DNA of 64,000 nt from a plasmid. The stretch is taken from assembly GCF_988243305.1 (NCBI RefSeq), contig NZ_OZ547138.1; one strand, given 5' to 3'. Each line of letters begins with the position of its first letter. Within the stretch, counting starts at the first letter, position 1. This document shows, piece after piece, positions 14,358-20,278 of this stretch. The notes under the pieces are model-generated. The model was not told the DNA's origin. It did no database searches and saw only the letters and a list, made by a program, of their open reading frames with translations. A program made the position numbers and the translations under genes.

Positions 14358-14858
14358 ATGTCTGTTGTTGCACCTGCTGTATACGTTGGAACCTGGCACA
14401 AATACAACTGTGGAAGCATCGCCGGACGCTGGTTTGACCTGACCACGTTTGATGATGAGCGCGACTTTTTCGCCGCCTGCCGTGCTCTTCACCAGGATGA
14501 AGCCGATCCTGAACTGATGTTTCAGGATTATGAGGGATTCCCGGGGAATATGGCCTCTGAATGTCATATCAACTGGGCCTGGGTTGAAGGCTTCCGCCGG
14601 GCACGGGATGAAGGCTGCGAAGAGGCTTATCGTCTCTGGGTGGATGATACCGGTGAGACGGATTTTGACAGCTTCCGCGATGCCTGGTGGGGCGAGGCTG
14701 ACAGTGAGGAGGCTTTTGCGGTTGAGTTCGCCAGTGATACCGGCCTGCTGGCTGACGTGCCGGAGACGGTGGCGCTCTATTTTGACTATGAGGCGTATGC
14801 GCGGGATTTATTCCTGGACTCCTTCACCTTTATTGACGGTCATGTGTTCCGTCGGTGA
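14358..14858 (+). CDS. ardA: ArdA antirestriction protein (DNA mimic, anti type I R-M)
   Basis: Internal start MSVVAPAVYVGTWHKYNCGSIAGRWFDL gives 166 aa, highly acidic; about 5 kb from oriT as in IncI1. Confidence 0.9.
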   Translation: MSVVAPAVYVGTWHKYNCGSIAGRWFDLTTFDDERDFFAACRALHQDEADPELMFQDYEGFPGNMASECHINWAWVEGFRRARDEGCEEAYRLWVDDTGETDFDSFRDAWWGEADSEEAFAVEFASDTGLLADVPETVALYFDYEAYARDLFLDSFTFIDGHVFRR

Positions 14859-15040
14859 TTTACTCCCCCGCTCCGGCGGGGGTATGGCCTGCCAGGCCGC
14901 CGGAAAACCCTGGCAGGCTTACGCCTGCCTGAAATGCAGGAGGGCCGCGCCTGCGGCGCTGCCCTTCCTGCCCGTCATGGTGTGAGGCATTTTTCTGTTA
15001 TGTCGTTTCTGTTGTTCTGATTTCCGGAGGCGGGGACACC

Positions 15041-15545
15041 TTCGGCTCCCGGCTGCCTGGCGGCATCCGGTCGTCAGGCCCGACTCCGACAGGCAGCTGC
15101 TGGCGCACCCGCCAGTCTCCGCCGAACCCGCTGGCGCGGTTTCGGGCTGCCGCTACGGTCCGATGTCTGAAAAACCAGGCTTGCAGCGACCGTTCCGGTC
15201 GCGCCGCCTCTGTCGCGCCGTGACCTGCGCTCCCTGCACACCTGACGGTGTGTAAGGAAACTGCGCCTGATGGCGCAGTTGTCTGCCCTTCCGCCGCCAC
15301 CCCTGCGGCCTGTTTCCCGCTGTGGACTTTCCGGGGGCTGAAGCGGCCACAACACGTGTCAGCCGTCCAGGGGGGAGATGTACCAGCCACAAAACTTTTT
15401 GCCGCAAGCGTCAAAAACTTTTGCGTCTGCCCCCGGACAACTGCCCCGTGCCGTGGCTGTCGCTGCCCCATCGGAAAGGTCCACTGCGGGGAGAAACCCC
15501 GAAGAAGTGGACGGCAGAAGGGGCTTTCGCCCCTCCGGGGGAGCA
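15041..15545. repeat. Structured GC-rich repeat, family B copy 2 (ssi/Frpo-like)
   Basis: Homologous to 8694-9200. Confidence 0.6.
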
Positions 15546-15589
15546 ACCGGTCGGCCCGGCGACCTGATTCAGCAGAAGGAGACGTTTTC

Positions 15590-16024
15590 ATGACAGTCAG
15601 CAGCACGATTTCCGTTTTTTGCCGCGACGGGGTGTTCCGTACCGTTTACTGCCACCTGCACGGTGAGCCGACCTGGAACGGTCGCATCCTGCATACCCAC
15701 TATGCCACCGGTCAGCAGGCCGAAGCCCTGGTTGAACACGGTGATATCCGTTGCCTCGGTCCCCGTTGCGACAAACCCGCCGGGCATACGCTTCAGAACC
15801 CGGTGGACGGTGTGACGGCTTATTACGGACGTGACAGTGGTTTCCGGATGGACAGTGAGGCGCGTGAGTACCGTTCTTTCAGGGAGGCCATCGCCACGGA
15901 AAGCACTGAAGAGGTGCGCTTCCATTATGTGTTCATCGACGGCTACTGGAAGGTGATGTACCGCACGCCGGAAGGCTGGAAGATGAAGTCGCTTGCGCTG
16001 GCACTGCGCCGCTGTCCGAAATGA
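15590..16024 (+). CDS. Hypothetical Cys/His-containing protein directly downstream of an ssi-like element
   Basis: ATG 15590 with AGAAGGAG RBS; 144 aa (MTVSSTISVFCRDGVF...). Confidence 0.5.
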   Translation: MTVSSTISVFCRDGVFRTVYCHLHGEPTWNGRILHTHYATGQQAEALVEHGDIRCLGPRCDKPAGHTLQNPVDGVTAYYGRDSGFRMDSEAREYRSFREAIATESTEEVRFHYVFIDGYWKVMYRTPEGWKMKSLALALRRCPK

Positions 16025-16030
16025 AAAAAA

Positions 16031-16051
16031 GGCAGGGCGATAAACCCTGCC
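16031..16051. terminator. Hairpin GGCAGGG-cgataaa-CCCTGCC flanked by an A-run; candidate (bidirectional) terminator
   Basis: Inverted repeat immediately after the stop of the 15590-16024 ORF. Confidence 0.3.
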
Positions 16052-16117
16052 TCTCTCCGCCGGCGCTTCCCCGCCAGGAAGCCCGGCATCTCAATCACTA
16101 TCTATGGAGATTATGCC

Positions 16118-16384
16118 ATGAGACCATCAATTATCTTCGCAACCGCCGAGTATGTAAAGCGTCTGCGTGAAGAGTGCCTGCGGGAGAATAAACCCCTGCA
16201 CCGCCATACCCGCTTCAGACGTCAGGAGCTGGCACAGGATGAGATTAACCCGGACGTCCTGGCGATGAGCGGTCATATCGCCAGACGCTGCAGTGAGCAG
16301 AAGCGGGTGCGTATCCCCGCTATGAAAGCCAGCGAATGGGGCCACCTGCTCCGCGCGCTTGAAATTGAACGGGTCTGCCACTGA
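16118..16384 (+). CDS. Small hypothetical protein
   Basis: 88 aa; GGAG RBS. Confidence 0.35.
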   Translation: MRPSIIFATAEYVKRLREECLRENKPLHRHTRFRRQELAQDEINPDVLAMSGHIARRCSEQKRVRIPAMKASEWGHLLRALEIERVCH

Positions 16385-16448
16385 TTAACCCTTGCCGTCT
16401 GCCTGTGCAGGCGGCAGGATACGTTCAGACATCTCACCAGGAGGAACC

Positions 16449-17351
16449 GTGAGTAAGAAGAAAAACACCACAACGCCCACGCCGCATGATGCCGCGTTCC
16501 GGTCGTTCCTGGCGAATCCCGACGTCGCCAGAGATTTTCTGGAACTGCATCTTCCGGCGGAGTACCGGCAGTTGTGCGACCTGTCCACGCTGAAGCTGGA
16601 ACCCGCCACCTTTGTAGAGCCGGACCTGCATCAGTACGCCAGCGATATCCTCTGGAGCGTGAAAACCACCGGGGGTGAAGACGGCTATGTTTATACGCTC
16701 ATCGAGCACCAGAGCACCGAAAATCTGTACATGCCTTTTCGCATGTTACGTTACAGTGTGGCGGCGATGCAGAGACATCTGGAGCAGCACAAAACGTTGC
16801 CACTGGTGATTCCGGTGCTGTTCTATCACGGTGAGCGCAGCCCGTACCCGTACAGCATGAACTGGCTGGACTGTTTTGAGAATCCGGCACTTGCGGCTAA
16901 AATATACACAAAGCCGTTTCCGCTGGTTGATATCACTGTCGTTGATGACAATGAAATCATGAATCATCGCCGGATGGCCGCACTGACGCTGCTGATGAAG
17001 CATATCCGCCATCGTGACATGATGGAGCTGCTGGACAAACTCCCGAAGGTCATGGTGGAAATTTCAGACGAGCAGGTGCGTGTTCTGATTCATTACATCG
17101 TTAACGCAGGGGACTCTGTATCACCGGAATTTATGCGGGCGCTGGCTGAGCGTCTGCCGCAGCATGAGGATAAACTGATGACTATCGCAGAACGTCTTGA
17201 GCAAAAAGGTCGCCAGGAGGGCAGGATGGAAGGTGCGCTTGAAAAAGCCCTGGCTATTGCGTGCCAGCTTCAGAAAATGGGGATGACGCCGGAGCAGATT
17301 AAGCAGGCTACCGGGCTTTCCGATGACGAACTGAAGAAAATCACTCACTGA
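16449..17351 (+). CDS. Rpn-family (YhgA-like) recombination-promoting nuclease / putative transposase
   Basis: GTG start with AGGAGG RBS; about 300 aa with the YhgA-like core (ASDILWSV...YTLIEHQS) and the characteristic repeated C-terminal tail (ERLEQKGRQEGRMEGALEKA). Confidence 0.7.
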   Translation: MSKKKNTTTPTPHDAAFRSFLANPDVARDFLELHLPAEYRQLCDLSTLKLEPATFVEPDLHQYASDILWSVKTTGGEDGYVYTLIEHQSTENLYMPFRMLRYSVAAMQRHLEQHKTLPLVIPVLFYHGERSPYPYSMNWLDCFENPALAAKIYTKPFPLVDITVVDDNEIMNHRRMAALTLLMKHIRHRDMMELLDKLPKVMVEISDEQVRVLIHYIVNAGDSVSPEFMRALAERLPQHEDKLMTIAERLEQKGRQEGRMEGALEKALAIACQLQKMGMTPEQIKQATGLSDDELKKITH

Positions 17352-17363
17352 TGAGAGTATCAC

Positions 17364-17389
17364 AGCCCGGCAAAATGCCGGGCTTTTTA
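17364..17389 (+). terminator. Rho-independent terminator after the Rpn gene
   Basis: Hairpin AGCCCGGC-aaaat-GCCGGGCT followed by TTTTT. Confidence 0.55.
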
Positions 17390-17413
17390 TCCAGCAGGAG
17401 CAGAGCAAACAGT

Positions 17414-17584
17414 ATGACGCTTGCAGAACGTCTTATACAGAAAGGTTTTGAAAAAGGCGCTCTTGAAGTGGCGCGGGAAATAGCCTGTCGGCTTCGGGAT
17501 ATGGGCTGGCCGCCGAAACGGATTCAGGAGGCTACCGGACTTTCCGGTGAAGAACTGAAAAAACTGTTTCCTGATGAGCAGTAG
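17414..17584 (+). CDS. Small protein homologous to the Rpn C-terminal domain (free-standing RpnS-like candidate)
   Basis: 56 aa from ATG 17414 (CAGGAG RBS); MTLAERLIQKG..GALEVAREIACRLRDMGWPPKRIQEATGLSGEELKKL aligns with the Rpn tail TIAERLEQKG..GALEKALAIACQLQKMGMTPEQIKQATGLSDDELKKI. Confidence 0.45.
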   Translation: MTLAERLIQKGFEKGALEVAREIACRLRDMGWPPKRIQEATGLSGEELKKLFPDEQ

Positions 17585-17614
17585 CCTGGCATTCAGCCAG
17601 GCTGTGAATCACGC

Positions 17615-17866
17615 TCACACATCCTCTGCCGTTTCCCCCAGTTCATTTTCCAGACGCCTGATGATATCTGCCTTACGCATCCCCTGCATGTGAGGCAGCA
17701 GGTCACGGACTGAAAGAGCCTGGGTGGTCCTCCAGACGGTGACGTCCACCTGTTCCGCATTTTCCCAGGCGTGCCATGTTCTCTGCGTCACGCCAAATTC
17801 TCTGGCCGCTTTTTCGCGTGACCAGAGCATGCTTTTTCGCCAGATTCGCAGTTCCCAGTCGGTCAT
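17615..17866 (-). CDS. Small HTH (XRE-like) DNA-binding protein
   Basis: 83 aa; segment LWSREKAAREFGVTQRTWHAWE resembles an HTH; palindromic operators in its upstream region. Confidence 0.5.
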   Translation of the reverse strand: MTDWELRIWRKSMLWSREKAAREFGVTQRTWHAWENAEQVDVTVWRTTQALSVRDLLPHMQGMRKADIIRRLENELGETAEDV

Positions 17867-17880
17867 AAAATACCTTTGAA

Positions 17881-17968
17881 AAAGTGAAAAAACTTCACTT
17901 TATTTTATCACCATAATCACCAAATCAGCGCGAAAAATAAGTGTGAAAAAGTGAAGAAATTTCACTTT
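17881..17968. promoter_or_regulatory. Two palindromic operator-like sites AAAGTGAA-N5-TTCACTTT (17881-17901 and 17948-17968)
   Basis: Two near-identical 21-bp palindromes 67 bp apart in an AT-rich intergenic region upstream of the HTH gene. Confidence 0.4.
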
Positions 17969-18070
17969 TTTTAATTGCAGATGTCGTGCTGTTTTCTCTG
18001 TTTTCACCTGTGCGGGAGTGGTGTGCCAGTGACCACCACATGCCATTGTTGTGCCGTCGTTTTTCTTCAG

Positions 18071-18395
18071 TCGCGCCGGATGCGGCGCTCCCTGCACACC
18101 TGACGGTGTGTAAGGCCACTGCGCCTGATGGCGCAGCTGTCTCTGCCTGTCTGCCGCCGCACTGCGGCCTGTTCTCCGCAGACGGACTTTCCGGGGGAAC
18201 ATACACGACCACATCCCGTTTCAGTTATCCAGGGGAGAGATGTACCAGCCACAAAACTTTTTGCCGCAGGCGTCAAAAACTTTTGCGTCTGCCCCCGGAC
18301 AACTGCCCCGTGACGTGGTGAGCATCCCCCGTCGGAAAGGTCCACTGCGGGGAAATCCCCGAAGACCCGGACGGCAGAAGGAGCTTCGCTCCTCC
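18071..18395. repeat. Structured GC-rich repeat, family B copy 3 (partial; ssi/Frpo-like)
   Basis: Homologous to the right-hand 330 bp of 8694-9200 and 15041-15545. Confidence 0.55.
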
Positions 18396-18442
18396 GGGAA
18401 ATGACCTGGCTGACCCGGCAGTCGTGACGATGAGGAGACAAT

Positions 18443-19294
18443 GTGATGAATCAGACTTTACCCACTGCTGACCTGAATACTGCCGGCACGACAGATATTA
18501 TTCCGTCTGTGGCCATCGACCGCATTATCGCGCAGCGTAACGAAGGTATTGCACTGTTCATGCAGGCGATGGAATGCCTGGCGACAGCACGCAGGATTCT
18601 GCTCGATGCTTCTGGTGACATTTTTCTCTACGGGTTTGAAGACTGCGTGACTGACTCTGTTCGATGCATGGATAAACCGGAAGAAGCAAAAAAGAATATC
18701 ACCCGTCTTGCCGACCGTAAAATCTGGGACCGCCTGATGGCGGATACGGGGATGTACACCTTCATGAGTTCATGCCAGCGTGATGAGTGGAACAGCCAGC
18801 TGATGAGCGACACCTGTCCTGAAATCACCCTGGACAATGTGCTGGCAACTTTTCGCCATCTGAATGCCAGCAAGATGCAGACATTTGAACAGAGACTGAT
18901 TGATGTCTACCGGAAATTGTCATGGGATTACAGAACCAATAATCCCTGCCGTCTGGGCAAGAAAATCATTATTGAAAACCTGCTGTACCGCTGGAGTAAC
19001 GGGCGTGTGACGCTGGACTGCAGCGGACGGGAGGCACTGGATGACCTGGTACGTCCGTTTTATCTGCTGGAGGGACGCAACGTTCCTGACTTCAGGAACA
19101 GCATCGGGGCGCAGTATGGTGAATATCTCGGGAACGGCGATAATGTCGGTAAGCTGTTAGAAGGGGAATATTTTACGGTGCGTGGCTACCAGAAAGGGAC
19201 CGTACACATTGTCTTTAAGCGTCCTGACCTTGTTGAAAAACTGAATGATATTATTGCACGGCATTATCCTGGTGCATTGCCGCCACGAGTCTGA
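18443..19294 (+). CDS. Hypothetical protein directly downstream of an ssi-like element
   Basis: 283-aa ORF with GAGGAG RBS, followed by a terminator. Confidence 0.5.
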   Translation: MMNQTLPTADLNTAGTTDIIPSVAIDRIIAQRNEGIALFMQAMECLATARRILLDASGDIFLYGFEDCVTDSVRCMDKPEEAKKNITRLADRKIWDRLMADTGMYTFMSSCQRDEWNSQLMSDTCPEITLDNVLATFRHLNASKMQTFEQRLIDVYRKLSWDYRTNNPCRLGKKIIIENLLYRWSNGRVTLDCSGREALDDLVRPFYLLEGRNVPDFRNSIGAQYGEYLGNGDNVGKLLEGEYFTVRGYQKGTVHIVFKRPDLVEKLNDIIARHYPGALPPRV

Positions 19295-19304
19295 TTAAAC
19301 AGAA

Positions 19305-19336
19305 AAGCCCTGGTATTTATGCCGGGGCTTTTTTTC
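19305..19336 (+). terminator. Rho-independent terminator candidate
   Basis: Imperfect hairpin AGCCCTGG...CCGGGGCT followed by TTTTTTT. Confidence 0.5.
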
Positions 19337-19378
19337 TGTAATCATCATAATCTCAGAACACGATGTGACATTGTCACA

Positions 19379-19714
19379 TCAATTGTTGTTCATATCGATG
19401 CCATCTTTCCTGCCTGAATCTGTCTTTTTAGGTGCTGTTTTAGAGGAAGAACGGCGGGATGGTTTTTTCGATTCTGCTTCCCGAATAATGTCGCGAAGTG
19501 CTTTCTCTCCTACTTCATACCCTGCATTTTTGAGCGTGTCACGAACATCTGCCAGTGTATAACCCTTTGTCCTTACCAGGACAATGATGTCATCACGAAT
19601 GGCATCAAGAAAATCACGCAATGTTTTCCGTTGAGCGGTGAGGTCCGGCAATTCCGATAAGGCAGCTTTTGCCAGCTGGATGTCATCATCTGAGTAAAAT
19701 TTTTTAGAAGCCAT
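19379..19714 (-). CDS. Hypothetical protein with basic Ser/Lys-rich C-terminal tail, divergent from nikA next to oriT
   Basis: ATG 19714 (MASKKFYSDDDIQ) with GAGAGA RBS; 111 aa. Confidence 0.45.
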   Translation of the reverse strand: MASKKFYSDDDIQLAKAALSELPDLTAQRKTLRDFLDAIRDDIIVLVRTKGYTLADVRDTLKNAGYEVGEKALRDIIREAESKKPSRRSSSKTAPKKTDSGRKDGIDMNNN

Positions 19715-19769
19715 TGGCACTTTCTCTCTGTTTTATGTTGAAGCCTGATTTTATCACCAAAACTGCCTC

Positions 19770-19935
19770 CTGGCAGGGCTGCGCCCTGCCTCTGCCGTCT
19801 GCATAAGACTATGATGCACAAAAATAACAGGCTATAATTGACCGAAAAACGGGACAGGATGTGGGAATGTCGGACCGCGCACGCGCACTCAGACATTCCC
19901 CACCTGGTCAGGGCTTTGCCCCGACACCCCGGTAA
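19770..19935 (-). other. oriT: Origin of transfer (oriT) region with inverted repeats; nick predicted on the minus strand
   Basis: Intergenic region immediately upstream of nikA-nikB; inverted repeats GGCAGGGC-tgc-GCCCTGCC (19783-19801) and GGAATGTC...GACATTCC (19864-19900); sequence resembles my recollection of the R64 nick region. Confidence 0.5.
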
Positions 19936-19945
19936 GGAGCAGACC

Positions 19946-20278
19946 ATGAGTGAGAAGAAAACCCGAACGGGCAGTGAGAACAGGAAGAGAATTGTAAAAT
20001 TCACGGCGAGATTCACGGAGGATGAGGCTGAAATCGTAAGAGAAAAAGCGGAGTCAAGTGGACAGACGGTTTCAACATTTATACGAAGTTCTTCACTGGA
20101 TAAGGTGGTTAACTGCCGTACTGACGACCGTATGATTGATGAGATTATGCGTCTTGGCCGCCTTCAGAAGCATCTGTTTGTGGAGGGAAAACGCACTGGT
20201 GATAAGGAGTATGCAGAGGTTCTTGTTGCCATTACTGAATATGTCAATGCTCTGCGAAGAGACTTAATGGGACGCTGA
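19946..20278 (+). CDS. nikA: Relaxosome accessory protein NikA (RHH, oriT binding)
   Basis: 110 aa MSEKKTRTGSENRKRIVKFTARFTEDEAEIV with AAGGAG RBS; directly upstream of the relaxase. Confidence 0.9.
   Translation: MSEKKTRTGSENRKRIVKFTARFTEDEAEIVREKAESSGQTVSTFIRSSSLDKVVNCRTDDRMIDEIMRLGRLQKHLFVEGKRTGDKEYAEVLVAITEYVNALRRDLMGR

Follow-up and report, generated by a model that had tools for sequence, protein, structure and literature searches.

Which function can the tail of a nuclease have once it stands alone as a gene? The question is raised by the window analysed here, a 64,000-nt stretch of plasmid contig NZ_OZ547138.1 (assembly GCF_988243305.1), in which an Rpn-family nuclease gene is followed, on the same strand, by a short open reading frame (ORF) whose product resembles the C-terminal end of the nuclease itself. 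Besides the toxic full-length protein RpnL, genes of the rpn family make a small protein, RpnS, which begins at an internal start and blocks RpnL (Zhong et al. 2023, PNAS, PMC10400941). The initial annotation of the locus took the short ORF for the equivalent of RpnS, encoded here as a diverged separate gene. The 300-aa Rpn/YhgA-like protein and the separate 56-aa ORF have the coordinates and sequences given there, and the module is laid out as follows:

16449–17351, plus strand: rpn (ygdB in IncI1 nomenclature), assigned below as an RpnP2-L allele; GTG start, 300 aa, PD-(D/E)xK nuclease domain plus type-1 tail
17352–17413, plus strand: spacer of 62 nt with a terminator hairpin (17364–17384), a T-run and a conserved CAGCAGGAGCAGAG motif (AGGAG at 17396–17400)
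17414–17584, plus strand: free-standing C-terminal-domain gene of the RpnSs class; ATG start, 56 aa, a single GFEK repeat at 17447–17458

The reading we favour, with about even confidence, is a composite one: the ORF would be a paralogue of the tail domain HTH_Rpn_C, belonging to the RpnSs class of free-standing RpnS copies, and the last unit of an array of tail cassettes, with an accessory role rather than that of main antitoxin of the neighbouring nuclease.

Residues 244–298 of the nuclease and residues 1–51 of the ORF product are identical at 31 of 55 positions (56%) with one 4-aa gap (BLASTP, composition-corrected, E = 3e-16), and the Smith–Waterman score of 139 stands against 24.3 ± 4.8 for 5000 shuffles (z = 23.8), which bears out the homology claimed at the outset. 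That the likeness might consist of low-complexity repeats only had been raised as an objection; such an artefact is ruled out, since the non-repeat C-terminal part alone yields z = 21.4. The ORF product further matches positions 226–273 of TIGR01784, the C-terminal end of that model (E = 1.9e-6), and PF27070 (HTH_Rpn_C) is recorded on many of its close homologues; the 56-aa variant of the window gave no Pfam hit in the library used. These alignments make the ORF product a genuine homologue of the C-terminal domain of Rpn. Its first residue, Met1, falls opposite Met244 of the nuclease and opposite residue 1 in 7th0, the crystal chain of RpnA-S, in agreement with the proposed equivalence to the internally initiated RpnS, and the start MT(I/L)AERL is present in all compared loci, being the sole start conserved across them.

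The AlphaFold2 (AF2) model of the ORF product (mean predicted local distance difference test score, pLDDT, of 73) contains helices at residues 3–29, 34–41 and 45–51, the first one long. Its best PDB match in Foldseek is RpnA-S (7th0; probability 0.99, TM 0.72, root-mean-square deviation 2.3 Å, E = 0.21), a match of only moderate confidence because the protein is small; Hin/resolvase and DeoR helix-turn-helix (HTH) domains come next, with E above 0.4. A three-helix fold like that of RpnA-S is predicted on this basis. Homologues of the ORF product measure 52, 56, 60, 64, 68, 72 or 76 aa because they carry 0–6 copies of GF(K/D)x, starting at residue 11–12, and such four-residue repeat polymorphism is a trait typical of RpnS proteins, RpnSs included. 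A tblastn search of 50,697 phage records returned no match to the small ORF. Separately, the PHROG families phrog_12274 and phrog_5416 (66-position profile), of unknown function, are weakly similar to the Rpn tail, which hints at small tail-like proteins in phages.

The two genes are separated by a terminator-like hairpin of 9 pairs (7 of them G-C) followed by TTTTTA, as the rho-independent terminator of the initial annotation implied. The hairpin is found in every related locus; the 6-bp core GCCCGG/CCGGGC never varies, and in the outer pair A-T gives way to G-C on both sides, a compensatory change. The spacer as a whole measures 58–62 nt across 15 plasmid loci and ~40 further contigs. An RBS (ribosome-binding site) of the ORF's own had also been claimed, and here the claim holds in part: the AGGAG motif is conserved, and its position 13 nt from the ATG is suboptimal, with a weaker GAG at 8 nt, which makes the site plausible but not strong. 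A scan of the spacer found no promoter for the small ORF. Translation of the ORF is a prediction of ours, presumably from transcripts that read through the terminator.

RefSeq gives the small ORF as 77 aa from an ATG at 17351 that overlaps the rpn stop, and some newer homologue records carry the name 'RpnC/YadD family protein'. We rejected this longer frame (17351–17584). Its 21-aa extension covers the terminator and is unconserved, several loci have no ATG at this position, and the frame of the extension varies from locus to locus because the spacer ranges from 58 to 62 nt. By the conservation of its start, the 56-aa reading is the right one and the 77-aa version is wrong.

We surveyed homologous plasmids for conservation of the gene pair, as had been suggested, and the pair is conserved: the rpn–spacer–ORF region occurs in 2040 PLSDB plasmids and is covered to at least 80% in 1973 of them. 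Of 5426 complete E. coli genomes, 1336 (~25%) contain spacer plus ORF; 1431 of 1446 E. coli placements are plasmid-borne and 15 chromosomal. One chromosomal case in our set is the L041 copy, which lies in a 5.2-Mb contig. Only 43 of 1408 matching E. coli records (~3%) are without most of the spacer plus ORF. Homologues of the ORF product fall into 327 protein clusters, the retrieved sequences differing in length by 4-aa steps. For comparative analysis we sampled 56 loci, which share ancestry. In the 52 loci complete for the ORF, the non-repeat core occurs as 20 alleles at the DNA level and 12 at the protein level; frameshifts or stops were found in none of the loci, all 52 being intact. Across the 20 DNA alleles, the ratio of nonsynonymous to synonymous diversity (pN/pS) is 0.19 (pS 0.13, pN 0.025), and the synonymous diversity of 0.13 is ~3 times that of the adjacent nuclease domain (0.043). 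By these measures, the ORF is a real gene under purifying selection.

The identity of the upstream gene bears directly on what the ORF can be doing. The rpn product matches PF04754 over residues 11–207 (E = 1.9e-78) and TIGR01784 (E = 3.1e-54), and residues D14, D66, E86 and Q88, those altered in the published inactive mutant gBlock AO730, are all present. The published RpnP2 oligonucleotides AO739 (deletion primer) and AO733 (start-codon primer) match the window exactly, and the visible 399 nt of RpnP2 gBlock AO591 are 99.2% identical to 16149–16547; because of these matches, we assign the window gene to the RpnP2 locus. At this level of identity it is an allele of RpnP2, the anti-phage toxin of the ECOR13 plasmid. 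A further oligonucleotide, AO740, corresponds to spacer sequence of the type-2 allele at locus L013, and the region upstream of rpn is 99% conserved. Three elements within the gene are relevant:

17166–17351, plus strand: internal RpnS frame; Shine–Dalgarno (SD) motif GAGGA at 17166–17170, 7 nt, then ATG at 17178 (Met244), 57 aa in the rpn frame
16876–16903, plus strand: candidate sigma-70 promoter inside rpn, TTGAGA-16-TAAAAT, 10 of 12 consensus matches, also in ECOR13 gBlock AO714
17208–17231, plus strand: four-residue repeat region of the nuclease tail, GRQE GRME, whose copy number varies between plasmids

According to Zhong et al. (PMC10400941), RpnP2, a plasmid system of ECOR13, gives protection against T-even phages, whose plaquing it lowers; within the system, the toxicity of RpnP2-L is neutralised by RpnP2-S. 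In the same work, gBlock AO714 exchanges GAGGACAGCATTATG for tctgacaccatttta and thereby abolishes RpnP2-S in the ECOR13 allele. The element destroyed is the GAGGA-N7-ATG that the window carries at 17166–17180, and the internal RBS and ATG are kept at all compared loci. By this correspondence, the window nuclease has an internal antitoxin start of its own, validated experimentally in the ECOR13 allele. Internal transcription start sites have been reported for K-12 rpn genes (PMC10400941), and the candidate promoter at 16876–16903 could yield a short transcript for the internal RpnS.

The published clone extends 101 bp 3′ of rpn. As measured in L013, these are the 61-nt spacer and 40 nt of the small ORF, so that the constructs cut the ORF after 13 codons and all RpnP2 experiments lacked it in intact form. 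The RpnP2-LS clone is nevertheless non-toxic and protective (a published result, with the constructs mapped here). For this reason the ORF is a second copy that is dispensable for neutralising the nuclease, and the idea that the antitoxin had moved out into the separate gene is not supported: the internal start is retained, and the clone with a truncated ORF does no harm.

How, then, is the ORF related to the tail beside which it stands? Nuclease tails fall into three allelic types, ~70% identical at the DNA level and each variable in repeat copy number: type 1 (RQEG/RMEG; the window), type 2 (IQQG...VQQG; ECOR13) and type 3 (IQQG...IQKG). Type-1 tails span 49–73 aa. The small ORF represents a fourth, S type, whose DNA is 92–96% identical whichever tail precedes it and whose repeats carry Phe where those of the nuclease tails carry Met or Ile. 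Its product is 56% identical to the adjacent type-1 tail, 45% to type 2, 44% to type 3 and 33–44% to the tails of K-12 RpnA, RpnB, RpnC and RpnE. We examined whether the alleles co-segregate as those of a toxin and its antitoxin and found that they do not, the commonest ORF protein allele occurring beside tail types 1, 2 and 3 alike. The length of helix 1 is equal between tail and ORF in none of 10 distinct type-1 combinations; repeat numbers of the two are inversely correlated in type-1 plasmids (Spearman −0.67, nominal p 0.035, 10 distinct combinations from lineages that are not independent), a weak statistic because the 56 sampled loci share ancestry. RpnC-L is inhibited only by an RpnS of the same repeat number, one extra repeat abolishing inhibition (PMC10400941). 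Since repeat type and length are mismatched and the ORF does not co-vary with the neighbouring tail, we predict that it does not inhibit its neighbour; on this comparison, it is unlikely to be the main antitoxin.

The compared loci also suggest how such copies arise and recombine. In three-cassette arrays (L033, 1010–1695; L046–L052), a nuclease with a type-2 or type-3 tail is followed by a free type-1 tail gene of 53 or 57 aa and then by the small ORF, with the same terminator/SD spacer after each cassette; the type-1 cassette occurs both fused to a nuclease and free-standing. Conversely, locus L057 (NZ_CP074775.1, 975–1874) contains a single cassette, whose tail is type 1 up to ATGLS and then continues as the ORF, ending GEELKKLFPDEQ, with no separate small ORF behind it. 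By its junction, this is a natural deletion-fusion of the tail with the downstream copy. Loss of free-standing RpnSs copies through deletion or fusion has been described (PMC10400941). We searched for a partner nuclease in 5.8 billion clusters and 1.84 billion representatives. A full-length Rpn ending in an S-type tail was not among the hits. All of the 120 that scored best with the ORF measured ≤93 aa, and the top hit of Rpn size (317 aa) in the 1.84 billion representatives reached only 39% identity. A chimeric query joining the end of the nuclease domain to the ORF gave ≤83% identity among the partial Rpn entries that this search listed, all of them with type-1 tails.

From these observations we propose the following mechanism. 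A cassette would consist of a tail ORF, beginning at the methionine of the internal RpnS, and a 58–62-nt spacer with terminator hairpin and Shine–Dalgarno motif. In the first cassette the tail is joined to the nuclease domain, which would give RpnP2-L and, from the internal start, RpnP2-S, an antitoxin that is proven and sufficient in itself. The last cassette would be translated alone, its product being a three-helix protein with a long first helix that bears 0–6 GF(K/D)x repeats. Three-cassette arrays would result from unequal recombination between conserved ends of the cassettes, and fusions from recombination between tail and ORF, so that one process might account both for the origin of the ORF and for the exchange of tails. 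The ORF protein would most likely behave like an RpnS, pairing through helix 1 with C-terminal domains of equal repeat type and length, and would form an orthogonal accessory module, either as a homodimer or as a partner for S-type tails.

The position of the module suggests when it might act. The window corresponds to the leading region of I-complex conjugative plasmids (best match NZ_CP145695.1, 100% identity over 16300–17700, typed as IncI-gamma/K1, MOBP, MPF_I), where the genes run ardA-like, ssb, parB-like, psiB, psiA, ardA, ygcA, ygdA, rpn and small ORF, followed by an opposite-strand HTH gene, a DUF4942 gene and oriT with nikA/nikB. With ardA, psiB and ssb around it, the small ORF stands ~2.2 kb away from oriT, and its assignment to the early-transferred leading region was correct. 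One further element precedes the ygcA-ygdA-rpn genes:

15200–15540, minus strand: Frpo/ssi-like single-strand promoter element upstream of ygcA-ygdA-rpn; single-stranded DNA hairpin of dG −111.7 kcal/mol, z = −9.5

A second copy of this ~340-nt element, 91% identical, is found at 18058–18400. The rpn module is flanked by the pair, of which the second copy lies ahead of a DUF4942 methyltransferase-like gene next to oriT. Both are probably class-1 ssi/Frpo single-strand promoters, each folding as one long hairpin; class-1 ssi elements of IncI1 plasmids have been described and drive early expression of leading-region genes (PMC12672017). Because the first element stands upstream of ygcA-ygdA-rpn and in the same orientation, early expression of rpn after transfer is plausible. 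Elsewhere in the region, two AT-rich direct repeats of 42 nt (17867–17908 and 17934–17975, 83% identical) lie just upstream of the minus-strand HTH gene (17615–17866) and may be operator sites for the regulator that it encodes. In loci L004, L011, L012, L022–L024 and L058 an extra 129-aa gene, ccgAII, is inserted between ygdA and rpn, its 3′ end overlapping the rpn start. An Rfam scan of 14500–20000 returned no family, and PADLOC gave no hit for either the nuclease or the small-ORF protein.

Several other explanations compete for the same data. The ORF could be a cognate second antitoxin that binds the C-terminal domain of the adjacent nuclease and either supplements the internal RpnS or takes its place, for instance by buffering the burst of nuclease produced when the plasmid enters a new host. 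It is, after all, a homologue of a proven antitoxin domain placed immediately downstream on the same strand, it is closer to its neighbour's tail than to those of K-12, it has been kept with rpn in at least 1973 plasmids, and a comparable K-12 copy, YpaA/RpnE-Ss, is made as protein (PMC10400941). We consider this explanation unlikely, though credible: RpnP2 clones lacking an intact ORF are non-toxic, a single extra repeat abolishes inhibition of RpnC, the repeat number differs from that of the tail in every distinct type-1 combination and the repeat residue differs as well, and the ORF varies independently of the three tail types. The constancy of the ORF beside changing tails would also fit a target outside the locus. 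As a counter-defence decoy of the leading region, expressed early, the ORF would inactivate Rpn nucleases of the recipient, whether chromosomal or on competing plasmids; its distance from oriT, its neighbours ardA, psiB and ssb and the Frpo/ssi-like elements on both sides agree with this, as does the enrichment of leading regions in orphan antitoxins that are proposed to act against host toxin–antitoxin defences (PMC11541004). Such a role is nonetheless improbable. The searches above revealed no nuclease with a matching tail, the K-12 tails are only 33–44% identical to the ORF product, and RpnA-S and RpnB-S already fail to cross-inhibit (PMC10400941), their tails being 46% identical in our alignment; moreover, the ORF sits behind a terminator and not directly behind a single-strand promoter.

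A conserved DNA target would likewise explain a constant ORF beside changing tails, if the product were a small HTH DNA-binding regulator, e.g. an autorepressor of the rpn operon or a regulator of neighbouring leading-region genes. The domain is catalogued as HTH_Rpn_C, Hin/resolvase and DeoR domains are its next structural neighbours, a relation of the Rpn domain to HTH motifs in HHpred has been noted (PMC10400941), and the region upstream of rpn is 99% conserved. No operator was identified, however, the Foldseek scores for HTH proteins are weak, and 0–6 repeats in helix 1 would shift the geometry of a dimer, which is odd for a fixed operator; we rate this role as low in probability. The opposite extreme is that the ORF has no function and is the relic of an unequal crossover, carried passively, in the way K-12 ypaA is annotated. 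Unequal recombination clearly operates at this locus, ypaA is flagged as a pseudogene in MG1655, and the upstream terminator and poor SD spacing would suit a silent gene, but a pN/pS of 0.19 at a synonymous diversity of 0.13, the complete absence of frameshifts and stops in 52 loci, the conserved start codon and SD motif and the rarity of records without the ORF make a relic very improbable. Finally, the tail cassettes as a whole may constitute a recombinational diversification system, in which orthogonal zippers with Met, Ile or Phe repeats are stored as separate, expressed genes and swapped onto the nuclease by unequal crossover at conserved ends of the cassettes. Exchange would possibly be promoted by Rpn's own RecA-independent recombination activity, and nuclease plus antitoxin would in this way escape phage or plasmid inhibitors; in a variant of the scheme, the constant Phe-type copy would be a leading-region decoy or a regulator acting in the recipient. 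We regard such a system as rather unlikely.

Our preferred interpretation of the ORF as an accessory RpnSs paralogue has to be held against four considerations. The ORF lies behind a conserved terminator, with its strong SD motif 13 nt from the ATG. The equal-repeat rule comes from RpnC only and may fail for a paralogue of 56% identity, and weak or conditional binding of the ORF product to RpnP2-L may occur. For the orthogonal role, the searches brought up no full-length Rpn with a tail of the S type as a target. The length mismatch, in turn, is a weak statistic for 56 loci of shared ancestry.

The question matters because of where the module is found: in the leading region of I-complex resistance plasmids, with spacer plus ORF in roughly one in four complete E. 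coli genomes. To our knowledge, no Rpn system other than RpnP2 has been shown to act against phages, and a conserved downstream tail gene was left out of the published RpnP2 experiments. Should the ORF modulate the nuclease, provide it with a replacement tail or have its effect in recipients, this would change the view of Rpn specificity, of its hypervariable repeats and of its release from inhibition, and it would link a defence toxin–antitoxin system to the establishment of plasmids. Should it have no measurable effect, the locus would be an ordinary example of the RpnSs arrangement already described.

The closest known system is RpnP2-LS of ECOR13, which has the same GTG start, catalytic residues and position of the internal RBS and ATG as the window gene. 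It differs in carrying a type-2 tail with IQQG repeats instead of type 1, 16820–17203 are only ~80% identical, and its constructs end 101 bp after rpn; the available portion of that text does not discuss a small ORF for RpnP2 (PMC10400941). The arrangement itself recalls rpnE-ypaA (RpnE-Ss) and rpnC-rpnCSs, in which a free tail copy with an MT(I/L)AERL methionine start likewise follows rpn directly and on the same strand and, for rpnE-ypaA, has one four-residue repeat more than the upstream tail, the extra KLEG of YpaA. RefSeq flags ypaA of MG1655 (L016, 6905–8002, rpnE-ypaA) as a pseudogene despite detection of the protein by Zhong et al. The K-12 copy is 79% identical to the RpnE tail, compared with 56% at the plasmid locus, and its spacer has 12 nt, a strong AAGGAG and no terminator, as against 62 nt with a conserved terminator; on the plasmid, moreover, the downstream copy is constant beside three tails and arrays of two free cassettes occur. 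The ORF lies directly downstream of rpn, as an RpnSs does, and is nearest to the type-1 tail, yet is equally present beside types 2 and 3.

Plasmid leading regions are enriched in orphan antitoxins, for which a role against host toxin–antitoxin defences has been proposed (Samuel et al. 2024, Nature, PMC11541004). The small ORF resembles these antitoxins as a small antitoxin-like gene near ardA, psiB, ssb and single-strand promoter elements. It is not an orphan, because a toxin homologue is adjacent, and it differs further in that Rpn is absent from the main text of that paper and no recipient target was found for the ORF in our searches. By analogy only, the locus can be likened to the IncI1 shufflon, where alternative C-terminal segments of PilV are stored in tandem downstream and exchanged at conserved ends, features matched here by the three-cassette arrays and the L057 fusion; the rpn locus, in contrast, has no dedicated recombinase or inversion site, its events are rare, unprogrammed crossovers or deletions, and the stored cassette itself looks like an expressed ORF. 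The arrangement of the ORF has thus been described as the RpnSs class and the large gene published as RpnP2; what is new, as read from the compared loci, is a constant fourth tail type, its purifying selection, its own four-residue repeat in 0–6 copies, the length mismatch with the neighbouring tail, the cassette arrays and a natural fusion.

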